NCBI RefSeq assembly: GCF_943372375.1
Contig: NZ_CALRYJ010000007.1
Span: forward strand, 85,128-149,127
Length of the DNA: 64,000 bases
From: Fluviicola taffensis DSM 16823
Lineage (GTDB): Bacteria; Bacteroidota; Bacteroidia; Flavobacteriales_D; Crocinitomicaceae
Direction of reading: 5' to 3'
The translations under genes and the position numbers were made by a program. Shown piece after piece: positions 52,041 through 62,761 of the stretch. Numbering within the stretch: the first letter of the stretch is position 1; each line of letters begins with the position of its first letter. Below the pieces are notes generated by a model. It saw only the letters and a program-made list of their open reading frames with translations. It was not told the origin of the DNA and did no database searches.

Positions 52041-52113
<73 letters not shown>

Positions 52114-52118
52114 CAAAG

Positions 52119-52149
52119 AAAAGGTTGTCAAGTTTTGGCAACCTTTTTT
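52119..52149 (+). terminator. tRNA terminator (duplicated at 62723-62756)
   Basis: AAAAGGTTGTCA-AGTTT-TGGCAACCTTTTTT. Confidence 0.8.
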
Positions 52150-52171
52150 GTTTTTATAGAAATCACTATTC

Positions 52172-52417
52172 ATGTTTGTCACCTATGTTTTATACTCTGC
52201 CACTTACAACAAAATCTATGTTGGTTATACATCGGATCTGATTGACCGCTTTCATTCTCACAACCAATTTGCATCAAAAGGTTACACGGTTAAATTTCGC
52301 CCGTGGGAAGTAATCTATGTTGAATTTTTTGACTCAAAGGAAGAAGCCATGAAGCGTGAGAAAGAACTAAAATCTTCCAGAGGAAGGGATTTTATAAAAA
52401 ATAAGATTTTAGAATAG
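52172..52417 (+). CDS. Stand-alone GIY-YIG nuclease
   Basis: TYVLYS..KIYVGYTSDL..R..HN, AMKREKELKS; 81 aa; stop TAG is the start of a tRNA-derived repeat. Confidence 0.9.
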   Translation: MFVTYVLYSATYNKIYVGYTSDLIDRFHSHNQFASKGYTVKFRPWEVIYVEFFDSKEEAMKREKELKSSRGRDFIKNKILE

Positions 52418-52483
52418 CTCGTCGGGCTCATATCCGTCAGCTGACGGACGCACGTTTCCGCCGCGGCGGATGTCCCCGCTACA
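52415..52483 (+). pseudogene. Partial tRNA-fMet copy with two palindromic replacements
   Basis: TAGCTCGTCGGGCTCATA[TCCGTCAGCTGACGGA]CGCACGTT[TCCGCCGCGGCGGA]TGTCCCCGCTACA, followed by a hairpin and T-run at 52487-52517. Confidence 0.9.
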
Positions 52484-52635
52484 AGGAAAAAAGGTTAATC
52501 GCAAGATTAGCCTTTTTTTATGCGCAATTTTTTGAAACGACGAGAAGTTTATGCCGACATGATTTTCAGGGAACGCGGAAGGTGTCTAGTCCTAAAATAG
52601 CGATACACAAAAAGAATAGGACTAAGACATCCGAA

Positions 52636-54287: not shown

Positions 54288-54377
54288 CATAACCCGAAGG
54301 ATGCACGTTTCCGCCGCGGCGGATGTCCCCGCTACACCGAACGAAGGGCATCATTTCTGATGCCCTTCGTTATTTTT
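54288..54377 (+). pseudogene. Partial tRNA-fMet copy with TCCGCCGCGGCGGA replacement, plus 14-bp-stem hairpin
   Basis: CATAACCCGAAGGATGCACGTT[TCCGCCGCGGCGGA]TGTCCCCGCTACA; AACGAAGGGCATCA/TGATGCCCTTCGTT. Confidence 0.88.
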
Positions 54378-54412
54378 GCATCTTCCGAAACCCTTGCCAT
54401 TGCTGAGATTCT

Positions 54413-54600
54413 CTAAAAAAAGACATTCACTCTCAATGTTCGATACTCGCCTTTTTTGAAGTCATACACCAAACCCTCAGGAAATAGCATTTTTTGAATT
54501 CGCTTTTTACTTTCTTCGCTCAATTCGTCGAAAGATTCTAACAGGATAGCCTTCATCGGTTCAATGAATTTAGGATTAGCGAGTGTATATGCGACTAATC
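54413..54600 (-). pseudogene. Decayed C-terminal fragment resembling a large serine recombinase
   Basis: Own translation: ..KKRIQKMLFPEGLVYDFKKGEYRTLRVNVFF*; no catalytic domain; points toward the tRNA-derived repeat. Family call from recalled similarity. Confidence 0.55.
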
Positions 54601-55751: not shown

Positions 55752-55858
55752 CTAAAGTAAACTTATATTGTTTATGTCCTCAGCCACTTCCTTGTTCGAT
55801 ACCGGTCGTTTATCCGCGACTAGTGAAACGGTAATCAATTTTTGGTTACCGTTTTTTT
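55752..55858 (-). other. att-arm-like junction 1 (hairpin plus conserved arm)
   Basis: Minus frame VADKRPVSNKEVAEDINNISLL*; 25/29 nt identical to 62678-62706; hairpin AAACGGTAATC..GGTTACCGTTT. Confidence 0.55.
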
Positions 55859-55873
55859 ATGTCTAAGATTTTT

Positions 55874-55953
55874 GAAGGTCGCACGTTTTCGCGGTGGCGT
55901 ATGTCCCCTCTACACCGAACGACAGGGTATCAGAAAGATGCCCTTCGTTATTT
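55874..55953 (+). pseudogene. Degenerate partial tRNA-fMet copy plus hairpin related to 54288-54377
   Basis: GAAGGTCGCACGTT[TTCGCGGTGGCGTA]TGTCCCCTCTACACCGAACGA..GATGCCCTTCGTTATTT; insert is 10/14 identical to TCCGCCGCGGCGGA. Confidence 0.8.
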
Positions 55954-55959
55954 CATGCA

Positions 55960-57024
55960 TTAGATATCCGAAGGATTTGTGTCGAAGACCTTCTTAAAAA
56001 CCGCCGAAAACTTACTCGCATTTTCGTAACCGAATAAGCCGGCAACCTCTTTGATAGCGTATTTCCTCTGTAAAAGGAGCTCTCTGGCAGCCATCATTTG
56101 TTTTTTACTAAAAAACTGATACACACTTGTACCATGCATTCCCTTAAAATCATTTTTGAGTTTGGTTGGAGAAACACCTACTTTCCGGGCTATTTTTTCA
56201 ATCCCGGGGAAATCACCGAACAAGTGATCATTTAAGAACTGTTCTGCACGCTGAATGTTCTTGCGGTCATTATCGTTGAGTTTGAAGTGATTCTCCGAAA
56301 TGATCTCTGTATTGAGCTTTTCGATGAACTCAAACAAGATCCGATAGGTCAACTGCTGAATGACTTCCTTATTTTGATCGACACCCTTCTGTGCCAACTC
56401 CATCATTTCATGCCAGATGGATTCATAGACCGGGTCTGTTTCGTCTAAAATCAAAAAGGTATTCGGTGATTCAAAGAAATCAGCTAGCTTGCTGTTCCGG
56501 GACACCTGGTTCGCCTCTTTTTGTTGCTCCAACCACCTGCTGGTAAAAAAAACGGTGATATTCTTTTCTTCCGAATTCTTAAAGTGGTACTCGGTTTGTG
56601 AACATCCGGCTTTAAACAGGGACCAGGTATTTCCTTTGGTCACCAATCCGTTGACCATGGATTTATTGACGAGTGTGGTTGTTTTGACGTGTAAATTGAT
56701 AAAGTGATATTCCAGAGGAAGTTTCTCGTCATACAAGTTGCGCATGAGGAGGTTTTTTTGGAAATGCAGGTTAGAAATCATGACCCAGAGTTCGGTTTCC
56801 GGGTTGCAATAGTACATCATCGATTTCAGGAAAATACTGGCAGATGACAGTGATTTTCGGATCGGATCATGCTTGGTGAAAGGCATTTGATCAAAACTCT
56901 CAATCATGGTTTCAGGCGACTGAAACAAATTATTCAACTGATAACTTCCATCCTTATAACCGACTTTATAACGCTGAAACTTTTTATACCAGGCGGCCAA
57001 GATGTTCGAAAACGTTCCTTCCAT
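55960..57024 (-). CDS. AraC-family transcriptional regulator
   Basis: C-terminal IEKIARKVGVSPTKLKNDFKGMHG..IKEVAGLFGYENASKFSAVFKK. Start 57024 preferred; 57105 possible. Confidence 0.9.
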   Translation of the reverse strand: MEGTFSNILAAWYKKFQRYKVGYKDGSYQLNNLFQSPETMIESFDQMPFTKHDPIRKSLSSASIFLKSMMYYCNPETELWVMISNLHFQKNLLMRNLYDEKLPLEYHFINLHVKTTTLVNKSMVNGLVTKGNTWSLFKAGCSQTEYHFKNSEEKNITVFFTSRWLEQQKEANQVSRNSKLADFFESPNTFLILDETDPVYESIWHEMMELAQKGVDQNKEVIQQLTYRILFEFIEKLNTEIISENHFKLNDNDRKNIQRAEQFLNDHLFGDFPGIEKIARKVGVSPTKLKNDFKGMHGTSVYQFFSKKQMMAARELLLQRKYAIKEVAGLFGYENASKFSAVFKKVFDTNPSDI

Positions 57025-57158
57025 GGGCGAAAGATACTTCAAGGATTTCGTTTTTCGAAGACTTCCGTTCTCCTTTTTGAAAAAACAAATGTCTTTTTGG
57101 AGCATGCTCCCTTTCCGATTCCACCTTAATTTCGAACCGGATTACAACTTATTCAATA

Positions 57159-60100
57159 ATGAAAAAACTACGCACTGGCCATTGGTCGCTAAACTCCGTA
57201 CAATGGAACCGGAAAGGATTCTTTTCACGGATCATCGCCGCTCTTATTTTTCTCTTAACCTTCCAGAATGCCTCTGCTCAACTGATTGCTCAGGTAAGTG
57301 ACTATGTGGGAAGTGGGTTGAATGAAAGCCAGGATGGAACTTTAACACAGGCGGGATTTAAAGACGTAACCAGTATTTGTAGCGATGGAAATAACAACTT
57401 GTATGTACTTGAGATAGTTAATGGTAAGATCCGAAAAATTACCCCATCGGGAATCGTCACAACTATTTATAGCGATCTGAATCAAAACTTTTTCGGTTCA
57501 GGTGGACTATCCGCCGCAATCCACGTGGATGCATTCTCCAATATCTATGTGTCCAGAGGGTACACAATTGCAAAAATAACCGGTCAGCACACATTCCAGA
57601 TCATTGCAGGTTCTCTTACAGAAGTAGGGTATACAAACAACAACATCGCCGGTCAAGGTCAAAATGCACGCTTTTCGTTCCTAAACTCCATGACATCGGA
57701 TATCTTTGGGAATCTGTATATTTCTGAAATAGGAGAAATAGCTTCAACTGAACGTTTTAGAATCAGACGGATCAATCCGTTTAATCAAAAAGTTGAAACA
57801 CTGTTTACGAGCCAAAAACCGATTTACGGTTTATGTTTCGATGCAAACGGAAATTTTGTTTTTGGAGAAGGGTTTTCGGTTGTGAAACTAAATCCACAAA
57901 CAATGGTAAAAACGGTAGTTGCCGGACATCCAACAGAAAGTAATCATATTAGCGGCCCCGGCACTGCTGCTCGTTTTCGCTCTATCGCTGATATTAAAGT
58001 GGTAAACAACGATATCTACGTCTTGGAGTGTGTTCCCAGGGTAATCAGGAGCTTTTCGAGTGCGTTTTCGAATGATTATAAATATGCTAAAAACTATTGT
58101 TATATCACGAAAATTTCCAATACGAATGTGGTTACCGATATTGCAGGAGGAGAAATAGGTGATGCAAATGGTGTAGGATTAAATGCCCGTTTCTATGGTC
58201 CATGCGGAATGGTAAAGAACTCTTCCGGAGATTTATTTATCTTGGATGATATGAAGAACTTGATCCGCAAGATCACATTTGTACCTCCAGCTCCAGCTCC
58301 CACACCTACTTATGTAAATGCTACTCCTTCTATTTGTTTGGGAAGTACGGTAGACCAACCGGCAACCATCACAGGGGCTGAGATGAGTCTTCAAATAACG
58401 AATGAAACTGTTCCTGTTTCCAGTGGGATTAAGGCCGCTTGCCGCAACCAGAATTTTGCATTTGTAGCAACGTCAAATGATGAAATCAAAAAATACGATT
58501 TTAACGGGAATCTGGTCGAAACCCTGCCTGCCATGCTGACGAATATTACCGGTATAGCTGCAGATTCCGTTAACCAGATTTATGCCGTTGCACAGGATAA
58601 TTCACTTCCTTCCTTAACTGCTGTTTATCGCCTACAGCCTAGCGGTAACATCGATCTTTCATGGGGTCCCACGACGTCAGGAGTTCTGAACAATGTATCT
58701 GCCATTGCCATGGGTAGTGACGACGGATTGATTTATGTGGCCGATACCTCAACGAGCTATATTTCATCCATTAATCCGGTAACTGCTGCCATCACCAACT
58801 TACCTGCTCCCGGGAACCTGCAATTGAGTTATTTCAAACCGGTGAGCATGGCCTTTGACGTCTTCGGGGACATGTACCTGGCAGATATCGGCGGAAACCA
58901 AATCCTGAAACGCAGCAAAGCAGACAACAATTACTACCCGGTATTCCCGGGATTGGAGAACGATACGCTGAAGATCGACGGAATCAGCATTGCACACTCC
59001 GAATCCGGATACATGTACTTGTCTTCCTCTGCCCGAAATGTGGTGTATGAATTGGGTGCGAATGCAGCCTATGATACCACAGTTGTCGGAAGAAAATTTT
59101 CGAATACGACCGAATTCAGTACGGGTTTCTCTCTGGATGAACCGATCAACGTCATCGCTATGAGTTCGAATAATGCGGGTGTACTCCTAATTCCCAATAA
59201 AGCAAGCGGTGAGATGAGAAAACTCGCCTACTTTATGATGAAAATTGCTCCGAGATTGCCGAAAGGCTTATTCTTCGATCCTAACACCGGAACCATTCAC
59301 GGAACTCCACTACAGGTTGCGCCATACACCACTTACACCATTACTGCGTATGGACCAACAGATAGCACGATGACAAATCTTGCATTCTCTGTAGACCCTT
59401 CGAGCCTGGTTTCCAACAATATCGGGAATAAAACCTCTGCAATCATCAACACGGGTGATGGATTGGCAGTGAATTTCTACGACAATTCCGGTTGTGAGCC
59501 TTTGGCTACCATCACGGACATCACGGACGGAAATCCAACAGGAAGCACGCAAGTGAAGCAAACAGTAGCAACCAACCTTCCGTTCTTCACTACCAGCGCA
59601 GGAGATACCAAATTTGTACGTCGTACAACGGAAGTCAATTCTCAGAAAATGGATTCCGCGAACGTACGCATCGAGTTGTATTTCACACACGCGGATATTG
59701 TGCATTACAATGCCAACAACGGAACTCAAACCGATTTCTCGAACGACACCACTGCAGGCACCATGGCAATGAGTATCCTGCAATTGCATACGGCTTCAAG
59801 CGGAAATACCCAACCTATTACACATAATACAACCGCAACGTGGAACACTTCCAAACAAGTGTGGGCAGCGAATTTCCCGGTAACCAAGTTCAGTACCTTC
59901 ATGGCCACCACACCGGATGCTTTGACTACGTTTGAATGTGAAAGCACCGAATCCACGGAATTTGCTTTCGGCTGTACCTCTGCCGAATACAACGGAGTTA
60001 GCTACACCGTAGACGGAGAGTATACGCTGAATTACCAAAACCAATACGGTTGTGACAGTATTGTGCACTTAATCGTGTTCCTGGATAACAACTCCGAAAT

Positions 60101-60572
60101 TACCATGATCGGCTCAGACACCCTGAAAGCATTGAATACGGCCAGCGGAACAACTTACCAGTGGGTAAATTGTGATAACAACTATGCAATTATTCCAGGA
60201 GCAACTGACAGTCTTTTCTTCGCAGCGGATACCGGAAGCTATGCTTGTATCATTACAAACACCGTTTGTGCAGACACTTCGGTTTGTGCGTACATTCAGG
60301 AGATTGGTGGAACCACCGGAATTGATCCGAATGGAAACATCTTTAACTATAAGATTTCACCGAACCCAACCAACGGTTTGGTACAGATCAGTTCCAGTTT
60401 CAATCAGCTGAACATTGAAATTTACAATGCACTGGGTGTGAAAGTCTTTGAAAAACGAACAGATTCCGGAATTACTTCGTGTAACCTATCGGAATTCGAT
60501 GCGGGGATTTACCTGATTCGTATGAGCAACGAAAGAGGTCAGATCATCACCGACCGAATCATCAAACAATAA
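57159..60572 (+). CDS. T9SS type A substrate with NHL/SMP-30-like propeller repeats
   Basis: DGNNNLYV, GQNARF, GLNARFYGPCG NHL-type repeats; LPKGLFFDPNTGTIHGTP Ig-like domain; CTD ISPNPTNGLV..AGIYLIR. Confidence 0.85.
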   Translation: MKKLRTGHWSLNSVQWNRKGFFSRIIAALIFLLTFQNASAQLIAQVSDYVGSGLNESQDGTLTQAGFKDVTSICSDGNNNLYVLEIVNGKIRKITPSGIVTTIYSDLNQNFFGSGGLSAAIHVDAFSNIYVSRGYTIAKITGQHTFQIIAGSLTEVGYTNNNIAGQGQNARFSFLNSMTSDIFGNLYISEIGEIASTERFRIRRINPFNQKVETLFTSQKPIYGLCFDANGNFVFGEGFSVVKLNPQTMVKTVVAGHPTESNHISGPGTAARFRSIADIKVVNNDIYVLECVPRVIRSFSSAFSNDYKYAKNYCYITKISNTNVVTDIAGGEIGDANGVGLNARFYGPCGMVKNSSGDLFILDDMKNLIRKITFVPPAPAPTPTYVNATPSICLGSTVDQPATITGAEMSLQITNETVPVSSGIKAACRNQNFAFVATSNDEIKKYDFNGNLVETLPAMLTNITGIAADSVNQIYAVAQDNSLPSLTAVYRLQPSGNIDLSWGPTTSGVLNNVSAIAMGSDDGLIYVADTSTSYISSINPVTAAITNLPAPGNLQLSYFKPVSMAFDVFGDMYLADIGGNQILKRSKADNNYYPVFPGLENDTLKIDGISIAHSESGYMYLSSSARNVVYELGANAAYDTTVVGRKFSNTTEFSTGFSLDEPINVIAMSSNNAGVLLIPNKASGEMRKLAYFMMKIAPRLPKGLFFDPNTGTIHGTPLQVAPYTTYTITAYGPTDSTMTNLAFSVDPSSLVSNNIGNKTSAIINTGDGLAVNFYDNSGCEPLATITDITDGNPTGSTQVKQTVATNLPFFTTSAGDTKFVRRTTEVNSQKMDSANVRIELYFTHADIVHYNANNGTQTDFSNDTTAGTMAMSILQLHTASSGNTQPITHNTTATWNTSKQVWAANFPVTKFSTFMATTPDALTTFECESTESTEFAFGCTSAEYNGVSYTVDGEYTLNYQNQYGCDSIVHLIVFLDNNSEITMIGSDTLKALNTASGTTYQWVNCDNNYAIIPGATDSLFFAADTGSYACIITNTVCADTSVCAYIQEIGGTTGIDPNGNIFNYKISPNPTNGLVQISSSFNQLNIEIYNALGVKVFEKRTDSGITSCNLSEFDAGIYLIRMSNERGQIITDRIIKQ

Positions 60573-60582
60573 TTAACAAACA

Positions 60583-60610
60583 AAGAGGATGTGTCTAGAC
60601 GCATCCTCTT
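60583..60610. terminator. Intergenic hairpin
   Basis: AAGAGGATGTGTCTAGACGCATCCTCTT. Confidence 0.55.
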
Positions 60611-60643
60611 CCTGTTTCAATCACATAATCAGTTATTTAAAAA

Positions 60644-62620
60644 ATGAAACAATTCTTTACACTCCTCTTTTTGGTTATCAGCAGTGCAGGTATTGCACAA
60701 AGCTATTCCGGTGGTTCCGGTACGGTAGCTGACCCGTATTTGATTGCCAACAAAGCCGATTTAAAATACTTAAGCGAAAATGTGAGTGAAGTAGGTTACC
60801 ACTTCAAACAAACAGCAAATATCGTATTCACATCCGCTGATTTTGCTCCGGGTGGTGACTTTTACAATGGTGGATCCGGGTTTGATCCGATCGGAGGAAA
60901 CATCAACCAGTACTTTATCGGGACGTATGACGGTAACCATTTCTTTATTGATAGCTTGTATATCAACAGACCAAACGAGGACGGTATCGGATTTTTCGCA
61001 TCTGTTAATCATCCCAATGCTGAAGTACGTGCTGTGGATTTAAGAAACGTAACGATTACCGGACAGAGTTATATTGGGGTGATTTCAGGAATAGTAAGTT
61101 CTGGGGCTTCTATTTTAAATTGTTCGGTTACCGGAACCATTTCAGGACAAACAACCATTGGTGGGTTGATCGGAGAGGTTGACTTAGCCACCGTTAACAA
61201 CTGCTTCACCCGTGTAAACGTGAACGGAGGCGATCTCGTTGCCGGATTGATTGCTTATGCTTCTGAGGTAACCATCAGCAATTGTTCGACTTCCGGAAAT
61301 TTAACCGGTCAGGAACAAGTAGGAGGACTTGTTGCTACTATACATGACTCCTTCATTACCAATTGCTATTCCCTTGCAGCCGTTAGCGGAACTAATTATG
61401 TGGGTGGTTTGGTGGGTAATTTTGGTTTGGGTTCAATAGTCATTACCAATTGCTACGCCGCAGGAGCAGTAAGTGGTACTTCATTTGTGGGCGGTTTAAT
61501 TGGTACTTTAACCAGCGGTAATACGGTTAATAATTCTTTTTGGGATGTGGAAACAACCGGACAATTGGTCAGCAGCGGCGGAACTCCGAAATCCACCCTG
61601 GAAATGAGATCACAAAGCACGTTTACAACTGCTACCTGGGATTTCATCAATGAATCTGCCAACGGAACCGACGACATCTGGAAAATGGGGGAATGTAAAA
61701 ACAACGGTTACCCGGTTTTTAGCTGGCAGGCCAGTGAAGTATATCCGGATCTAACATTTGGCTCAATTAACGGGAATGTTTTGGATTCAACAACTATTTG
61801 TTACAATGAGTCTGCTAATATACATGCAATGTCCTGGTACAATGTCACTTGGCATGACAGTATTACTGCCGGTAATTTAGTATCATCCAGTAGTCCGTTC
61901 ACTACACCAAATCTAACAGATACAACAATTTACTACGCTCAGGCAGATAACGGAACATGTATCAATCCGTTTCGTTTAGCATTTACAGTTGTGGTTCGAC
62001 CTGAAAACATTACCAATCAAACGTTTGAGTTCTGTGGAAGCGGATCTGTTACTGTAGGAACCAATACCTACACCACTACCGGAGTTTATACGGATGTTTT
62101 TACAGATGCCCATTCATGCGATAGTACCATCATTACAACTCTGACCATTCATCCGGATGTGAATACCGGAGTAACAGTGGACAGTTTGACGATTTCTGCT
62201 CTGGGAACCGGAACTTACCAATGGATCAATTGTGCTACTAACGCTGCTATTTCAGGAGAAACAGCTCAAAGTTTTACAGCAACAGCCAACGGATCTTATG
62301 CTGTTATTGTTTCCAATGGCAACTGTAGCGATACTTCTGCCTGCGTGAACATTACAACGGTTGGTTTAACTGACCTTACTGCTAATTCCAACTTCCGGGC
62401 TTACCCGAATCCAACGAAGGGTTCTGTTACCATTGACCTTGGAGCTGCGTACGCTGATGCAACGGTTGTGATTAAAAATGCGATCGGTCAGGTTGTTTGC
62501 TCCCAATCAATTGGTTCATCCGGAAAAACAGATTGCTCGATTGCAGGCGAAGCCGGAATTTATTTCCTGGAAGTGAAAACCGACAGTCAGCAGACCGTTT
62601 TGAAACTGATAAAAGAATAG
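60644..62620 (+). CDS. T9SS type A substrate with GLUG-repeat beta-helix
   Basis: GSGTVADPYLI, repeated VGGLVG/IGGLIG, SFWDVETTGQ; CTD AYPNPTKGSV..AGIYFLEV. Confidence 0.88.
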   Translation: MKQFFTLLFLVISSAGIAQSYSGGSGTVADPYLIANKADLKYLSENVSEVGYHFKQTANIVFTSADFAPGGDFYNGGSGFDPIGGNINQYFIGTYDGNHFFIDSLYINRPNEDGIGFFASVNHPNAEVRAVDLRNVTITGQSYIGVISGIVSSGASILNCSVTGTISGQTTIGGLIGEVDLATVNNCFTRVNVNGGDLVAGLIAYASEVTISNCSTSGNLTGQEQVGGLVATIHDSFITNCYSLAAVSGTNYVGGLVGNFGLGSIVITNCYAAGAVSGTSFVGGLIGTLTSGNTVNNSFWDVETTGQLVSSGGTPKSTLEMRSQSTFTTATWDFINESANGTDDIWKMGECKNNGYPVFSWQASEVYPDLTFGSINGNVLDSTTICYNESANIHAMSWYNVTWHDSITAGNLVSSSSPFTTPNLTDTTIYYAQADNGTCINPFRLAFTVVVRPENITNQTFEFCGSGSVTVGTNTYTTTGVYTDVFTDAHSCDSTIITTLTIHPDVNTGVTVDSLTISALGTGTYQWINCATNAAISGETAQSFTATANGSYAVIVSNGNCSDTSACVNITTVGLTDLTANSNFRAYPNPTKGSVTIDLGAAYADATVVIKNAIGQVVCSQSIGSSGKTDCSIAGEAGIYFLEVKTDSQQTVLKLIKE

Positions 62621-62650
62621 GACTAGTGTGATTAAACATAGGGTCTCCTG

Positions 62651-62761
62651 TTAAAAGCAGGTAATAATGTCTGCATCTTCAGCGAGTTCATTGTTCGATA
62701 CCGGTAGCCTTCCCGCTACAAAGAAAAAGGTTGTCAAGTTTTGGCAACCTTTTTTTGTTTT
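62651..62761. repeat. Right junction: conserved arm plus tRNA 3' end and terminator repeat
   Basis: Minus frame VAGRLPVSNNELAEDADIITCF*; CCCGCTACAAAGAAAAAGGTTGTCAAGTTTTGGCAACCTTTTTTTGTTTT. Confidence 0.85.

Follow-up and report, generated by a model that had tools for sequence, protein, structure and literature searches.

Archaeal integrases of the SSV1 type are tyrosine recombinases whose gene contains attP; when the element inserts into a tRNA gene, the integrase gene is rearranged and split into two large parts. The IntP/IntX integrase of Mx8 also has attP inside its gene, and integration into a tRNA gene gives it a new 3' end and a changed protein (PMC6070905). DsiB of the Dehalococcoides ssrA islands, a recombinase of the CcrB/large serine recombinase (LSR) type, has a gene that always overlaps attL and finds its stop codon only past the junction (McMurdie et al. 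2011, PMC3146451). Its authors suggested that DsiB is perhaps fully functional only on the circle, and they described a conserved motif just upstream of each repeat, as is also seen at the locus studied here (PMC3146451). We analyzed a window of 64,000 nucleotides (nt) from Fluviicola taffensis (C7:85128-149127, in the numbering of contig C7 of a 4.86-Mb genome), in which two short arms, A (55752..55820) and B (62651..62719), lie downstream of a tRNA-fMet gene. We consider it likely that each arm represents the element side (P half) of an attR junction and that the tail it encodes completes the open reading frame (ORF) of an LSR on the circular form of the element.

Our locus resembles the Dehalococcoides islands in its tandem array of islands behind a small-RNA gene, with 3'-end repeats, and the Fluviicola-type LSR shares with DsiB a gene that lies over attL and stops only beyond the junction. 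The targets differ, being transfer-messenger RNA in Dehalococcoides and tRNA genes (fMet, Met, Leu, His, Val, Arg) in the Flavobacteriales considered here. Dehalococcoides also has a small second recombinase, DsiA, whereas no DsiA-like enzyme was seen here. A far-end arm that continues the ORF in frame and evolves as coding sequence is found here; we know of no such report for DsiB. With Mx8 the Fluviicola-type LSR shares an attP within the integrase coding sequence, although Mx8 Int is a tyrosine recombinase of a phage and ours is an LSR on islands with defence and other cargo. The SSV1-type gene undergoes a large split, whereas here only a short tail is swapped. The design is already known from Mx8 and was noted for DsiB; the present data add evidence for coding evolution of the detached tail and for an arm with the geometry of an LSR attP.

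Arms A and B and the recombinase of relatives

The first-pass annotation of the window had described two matching stretches at 55779-55807 and 62678-62706. Both are present, and a recount found them identical at 24/29 positions, not the 25/29 originally given. They lie in an ungapped repeat of 93 nt (55765-55857 vs 62664-62756, 72% identity). A 28-nt arm consensus, allowing up to 3 mismatches, found only these two sites in the whole window, with 0 expected from shuffles; a third arm copy lies outside the window at C7:164528-164598. On the minus strand, arm A (55820..55752) reads VADKRPVSNKEVAEDINNISLL in 22 codons followed by TAG, and arm B (62719..62651) reads VAGRLPVSNNELAEDADIITCF in 22 codons followed by TAA, as had been noted. 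Between CCG (P) and GAC/GAT (D), 4/10 codons differ: GAG/GAA and GAC/GAT are synonymous, AAG/AAT exchanges K for N, and GTG/CTC, with two base changes, exchanges V for L. Each arm contains GTTCGA and is adjoined by a tRNA-fMet-like 3' end (CCGCGAC at arm A, CCCGCTAC at arm B) and then by a hairpin with a T-run; the motif, a tRNA-like core, and the hairpin had been described before. The terminator hairpin after arm A (55825..55855, plus strand; terminator scan) is a B'-type flank, and the one after arm B (62722..62756, plus strand) is 95-98% identical to the hairpin behind the live tRNA. The last ~44 nt of arm B together with its hairpin have 97.7% identity to the 3' end and terminator of the tRNA-fMet at 52041-52114.

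The window also holds an LSR pseudogene (54336..54598, minus strand), and we used its peptide to search 200 genomes belonging to the order. Many of these genomes contain matching open frames of about 530-580 amino acids (aa). In a relative of the same genus (G024), an intact 542-aa ORF (P0001) directly follows an intact tRNA-fMet. This protein has a Resolvase domain (PF00239, E=6e-26) and a Recombinase domain (PF07508). The catalytic domains of TP901-1 and TnpX were matched by sequence, and the window's own copy lacks the catalytic part. An AlphaFold model of the homologue P0027 (mean predicted local distance difference test [pLDDT] score 80.7) aligned with the integrases of SPbeta, Bxb1, and phiC31 and with the C-terminal domain of LI integrase (4KIS) over ~520-550 columns at a probability of 1.0. 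The domain order (catalytic, recombinase, zinc-ribbon-like with coiled coil) is that of Listeria A118/LI, phiC31, Bxb1, and SPbeta. The recombinase has only 3 cysteines and no evident zinc-binding cysteine set, so zinc binding is doubtful. Phage large serine integrases mostly target protein-coding genes rather than tRNA 3' ends, and we know of no att site inside the integrase gene for A118/LI, phiC31, Bxb1, or SPbeta.

In G024 and two other relatives (G419 and G340), the intact LSR gene abuts tRNA-fMet, meets no stop ahead of the junction, and continues antisense into the tRNA for 42 nt. The G024 recombinase ends in ...DALSFGVAGTRLERATFGL, where the anticodon loop supplies a TGA stop codon. 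The LSR and the arm peptide share one frame, as read from the codons GTA GCG GGx at the tRNA 3' end. An antisense run of 37-87 nt into the tRNA with no earlier stop was found at 11/11 homologous tRNA-bearing loci, which comprise fMet, elongator Met, and three Leu isoacceptors. The LSR-fold match and the tRNA overlap together therefore mark this family as LSRs that target tRNA 3' ends. The attP of the family lies within the recombinase's own 3' coding end. We also observed that the hairpin that serves as tRNA terminator once the element is integrated is encoded inside the recombinase ORF (codons ...TKGIRNDAL...), both in the window (54340-54371) and in relatives (locus L036, 6500-6540). Therefore, one stretch of DNA is at once terminator, att half-site, and coding sequence.

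The attP rebuilt in silico and the two predicted C-termini

In the same three relatives, an intact recombinase and an arm lie on one contig, 25-32 kb apart. The attL and attR sites share identity blocks of 17 nt in G024 and 22 nt in G340, and the exchange point is bounded only by such blocks (16-22 nt). LSRs exchange strands at a central dinucleotide of 2 bp and depend on a directionality factor for excision. We joined each arm in silico to the recombinase end at the shared GCTAC and obtained an in-frame recombinase fusion in 3/3 elements. The rebuilt tails are ...VAGTRPPSNKELAEDIHNIQLF, ...VADIRPVSNKELAEDIHNISLL, and ...VAGTRPLSNKELAEDINNISLL, each followed by a stop, with the circular-form consensus ...VAGxRPxSNKELAEDIxNIxLx before the stop codon. 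The integrated form of all three elements instead ends in ...VAGTRLERATFGL, and the open frame is 557 aa in the rebuilt attP versus 548 aa when integrated. The claims of the first-pass annotation that the arms are the last residues of a recombinase gene crossing the att core, and that integrated and excised forms have different C-termini, are thus supported by the in silico joins in these relatives. The directionality or stability switch that it suggested is conjectural. A tRNA-Leu element in another genome (G064), rebuilt in the same way, gave the in-frame tail ...QISNLNIGEDIRLCL, again followed by a stop. Contiguous attP-like genes with no tRNA nearby are present in related lineages (P0027, P0100, and a truncated P0065). 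A search for attR in three further lineages (G059, G048, and G148) found no repeat within 80 kb.

We propose that attP falls within the final ~50 codons of the recombinase. Its ORF would pass P' first, a hairpin that would also give the tRNA a new terminator, and would then cross the exchange point near the tRNA 3' end. On the circular element, it would terminate in the P arm with a tail of the consensus type. Integration would move the P arm to the far end of the island, and the ORF would then terminate in antisense tRNA with the ...VAGTRLERATFGL end. The elements would be excised as circles, and the two isoforms might differ in function. It is possible, although doubtful, that the tail swap is a built-in state sensor of the serine integrase. 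In that case, only the circle-encoded isoform, with its conserved acidic SNKELAEDI-type tail, might be competent or stable enough for attP x attB integration, and the integrated isoform would be altered by its antisense-tRNA end. DNA rearrangement would then set the direction of the enzyme, possibly without or besides a classical directionality factor.

The same arrangement bears on annotation. A protein search returned >1000 relatives under the name 'recombinase family protein', mostly from Flavobacteriales, and most of the 120 listed homologues (P0002-P0121) have antisense-tRNA C-termini such as GLEPTTFGL, GFEPPTLRAEI, and GIEPTRP.... These C-termini are read off antisense tRNA, so the annotated ends depend on the integration site. 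The >1000 Flavobacteriales proteins would thus be annotated with ends that differ from that of the protein that naturally integrates, which matters when large serine integrases are mined from integrated copies as genome-engineering tools.

Coding signal and attP geometry in the arms

With an arm sequence model built on six copies, we detected 17 distinct arms across the genus and family (at least 17, in Fluviicola-like genomes). For the codon analysis, we used 12 well-kept arms from the Pro codon to the stop. The minimum numbers of changes at codon positions 1/2/3 were 12/9/22. The dN/dS comparison over many arms that the first-pass annotation had proposed gave a pairwise ratio of nonsynonymous to synonymous differences (pN/pS) of 0.24 in the recombinase frame, a value reached by 0/1000 column shuffles. 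The stop codon column (TAG or TAA) was constant in full-length well-kept copies, arm-to-arm alignability ended exactly at the stop codon, and one copy had an in-frame 3-nt deletion. Stops or frameshifts were found in about 6/17 copies; these are decayed, as expected of abandoned ends. The 12 well-kept arms thus have a codon-position bias. Judged from these substitution patterns, the tail is under purifying selection as coding sequence. Selection on a tail that is detached from its gene for as long as the island is integrated offers a concrete case relevant to the idea, put forward for Mx8 and Dehalococcoides, that integration rewrites the integrase and so regulates it.

In the plus-strand frame whose wobble positions coincide with those of the LSR frame, pN/pS was 0.42; the remaining four frames gave 1.3-2.3. 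The lowish value in the plus frame raises the alternative that the product of the arms is a short peptide read from the plus strand (MSSATSLFDTGR...) or a small RNA ending at the hairpin terminator. Arms A and B both have an ATG and a terminator after the arm, and 3/4 of the differences between them are synonymous in this frame. However, the start column is not conserved among copies (M, I, V, or L), several copies have in-frame stops just upstream, and the C-terminal part of the peptide varies with each flank. The plus-strand micro-ORF was rejected because of the unconserved start codon and the in-frame stops. No Rfam family matched at E<=1, which argues against a small RNA. We regard this alternative, in either form, as very improbable.

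The GTTCGA of the arms differs in position from that of a tRNA. It is 16 nt from GCTAC in the tRNA and 21 nt from it in the arms; measured to the core, P arms have a spacing of 17 nt, as against 12 nt for tRNAs. The tRNA-Leu element of G064 has the same 5-nt surplus, with an extra TATTT. In the contiguous genes P0027 and P0100, GTAC is followed by 17 nt and TCGAAY, versus 12 nt in tRNAs, and P0065 has TCTAAC at the same distance as the TCGAAY of the other two. For LI integrase, the motif bound by the zinc-ribbon domain was described as lying 5 bp closer to the outer end of the site in attP than it does in attB (PMC3783163). A distal DNA motif lying 5 bp farther from the center in attP than in attB is therefore common to phage LSRs and to the elements described here. 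The outward shift fits this attP/attB rule, so GTTCGA is likely to be a recombinase-binding motif and not a tRNA relic. On this spacing, the GTTCGA of the arms is most likely the distal DNA-binding motif of the recombinase. A view of the arms as simple tRNA T-arms was rejected on direct reading, as the sequence around GTTCGA is unable to form a T stem.

The GTTCGA motif also fixes the tail residues S-N, and this brings in a further alternative. The arms might be conserved as DNA only, as a P half-site and maybe accessory sites, with the ORF running on to a chance stop and the tail having no role. In five lineages, the S-N codons fall on this binding-type motif at a constant distance, and the tails of other lineages differ; the same trivial view was weighed by the Dehalococcoides authors for dsiB (PMC3146451). 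However, conservation in the arms reaches ~45 nt past GTTCGA, outside the ~25-bp LSR half-site, and has a three-base periodicity in which Leu is written as TTG, TTA, CTG, CTC, or CTA and Ala as GCT, GCC, or GCA. One copy has TCT AAC, which retains S-N with GTTCGA broken. The low pN/pS, unmatched in the shuffles, and the end of homology at the stop codon likewise argue for a coding tail. We therefore consider conservation as DNA only to be unlikely.

Several observations nonetheless weigh against a tail that is encoded and used on the circle. The DNA motif could by itself account for the S-N pair. In the P0027 model, pLDDT is <50 over the C-terminal ~43 residues, so no folded role is visible; the tail falls in this low-confidence, probably disordered extension, as conservation of DNA only would also predict. 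The SN..EDI tail is not universal in the family: in the tRNA-His and tRNA-Val lineages the rebuild joins, but it yields an unrelated or very short tail. In G419, the core of the arm differs from the tRNA, so the pairing of this arm with the intact element is uncertain. We found no circular form or attP junction of a Fluviicola-type element; a strict pattern for such an attP gave 32 matches in metagenome contigs, all attributable to chance, and 0 in viral contigs. Logan contigs end at the tRNA and are uninformative about excision, and nothing scored in a protein search with the fused tail.

Fossil islands at the tRNA-fMet array

The chromosomal target of the island family, bearing attB, is the tRNA-fMet (CAT) at 52041..52114 on the plus strand (ARAGORN; Rfam 61.9 bits), and three G-C pairs can be read directly in its anticodon stem. 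Its native terminator hairpin, the B' flank, follows at 52117..52149 on the plus strand, and the same hairpin stands behind arm B. Downstream lies an array of tRNA-fMet 3'-like fragments, each with a terminator-like hairpin behind it, and further copies lie past the window at C7:161500 and C7:164528. Between the fragments are cargo genes for a GIY-YIG protein, a BBE-type oxidase, VIT1, an AraC regulator, and substrates of the type IX secretion system (T9SS).

The first fragment, D1a, is at 52414-52494. The second, D1b (54288..54335, plus strand), resembles the tRNA-fMet 3' half and has the palindrome TCCGCCGCGGCGGA in place of the T-loop; it makes up the B-type, left-hand part of a fossil attL. 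Directly after D1b comes the LSR pseudogene (six-frame translation, tblastn with P0001, and terminator scan), which covers residues 354-384 and 470-542 of P0001 and has an in-frame stop and a 1-nt deletion. Its minus-strand reading, ...QKMLFPEGLVYDFKKGEYRTLRVNVFF to a stop and ...AKITKGIRNDALRSV to a stop, is directed into D1b. The hairpin at 54340-54371 within the pseudogene is P' and doubles as a tRNA terminator. Island 2 thus spans D1b and the pseudogene (54288-54598), VIT1, and arm A, its attR-side P arm on the minus strand. The fossil attL of island 3 (55874..55957, plus strand) consists of D1c (55874-55913) and a decayed P' hairpin (55914-55957), which is the last trace of a deleted recombinase gene. 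The cargo of island 3 (55960..62620; Pfam) comprises the AraC regulator, on the minus strand at 55960-57105, and two proteins secreted by the T9SS, on the plus strand at 57159-60572 and 60644-62620, and the island is closed by arm B, likewise an attR-side P arm on the minus strand. Arms A and B are therefore same-side (attR) ends of two successive decayed islands and not the two ends of one element.

A tblastn search of this genome found no member of the LSR family besides the pseudogene, and none intact. The recombinase persists here only as a pseudogene, and arms A and B are therefore both fossils. The earlier proposal of a C-terminus assembled after excision is supported by the rebuilt elements of relatives; it does not extend to this genome, which keeps a pseudogene and has nothing to assemble. 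The puzzling repeat is thereby explained: it records, in fossil form, how islands have turned over at this tRNA-fMet hot spot.

The position of the arms within a tandem array of tRNA-fMet 3'-like fragments, together with the CCCGCTAC and native terminator that finish arm B, would also fit decayed direct repeats of a tRNA 3' end left by tyrosine-integrase islands, with the likeness of the arms due to tRNA descent. Pfam showed no integrase, tyrosine integrases included, in 18 ORFs that span ~36 kb, from 48836 (the genes immediately preceding the tRNA) to a point ~21 kb past the end of the window. The 45 nt common to the arms left of GTTCGA have no tRNA counterpart, and GTTCGA itself is shifted by 5 nt relative to the tRNA. 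This origin is highly unlikely in our view.

On the intact element of G024 (32 kb, C2:604-634 kb, loci L036 and L037) there are genes for a type I restriction-modification system and for an AAA_21/AbiEii-like ATPase, along with two giant ORFs of 2389 and 3305 aa; none of the ORFs tested was recognized as a phage structural gene.

The fragments of the array have further features. In three of them (52443-52494, 54296-54347, and 55874-55925), the T-loop is replaced by a GC-rich palindrome, which is TCCGCCGCGGCGGA in two and degenerate in the third; relatives have other hairpins at this position. A conserved module also follows a tRNA-fMet or an arm. It consists of a terminator, an 81-aa GIY-YIG nuclease gene (52172-52417), and a partial tRNA-fMet copy, and it was found in the window at 52117-52494, outside the window at C7:161500-161800, and on contig C7 of G419 (locus L072). 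The partial copy begins in the D-arm, exactly at the TAG stop of the nuclease gene, and its anticodon-stem and variable region are replaced by the perfect palindrome TCCGTCAGCTGACGGA. The module resembles a homing-type cassette with its own replacement for the tRNA 3' part, and its second copy in this genome is a pseudogene. Finally, in several copies and in more than one genome, the native terminator hairpin of the tRNA is interrupted at one and the same point by an insert of ~105-115 nt (C7:161577-161680 and C7:164606-164712, both outside the window, and loci L014 and L012 of G024 and G023). The insert starts with AGCGTCATTACGAAAGTGGTTACGC and finishes with GAGAGCGT, and it may be a small mobile insertion.

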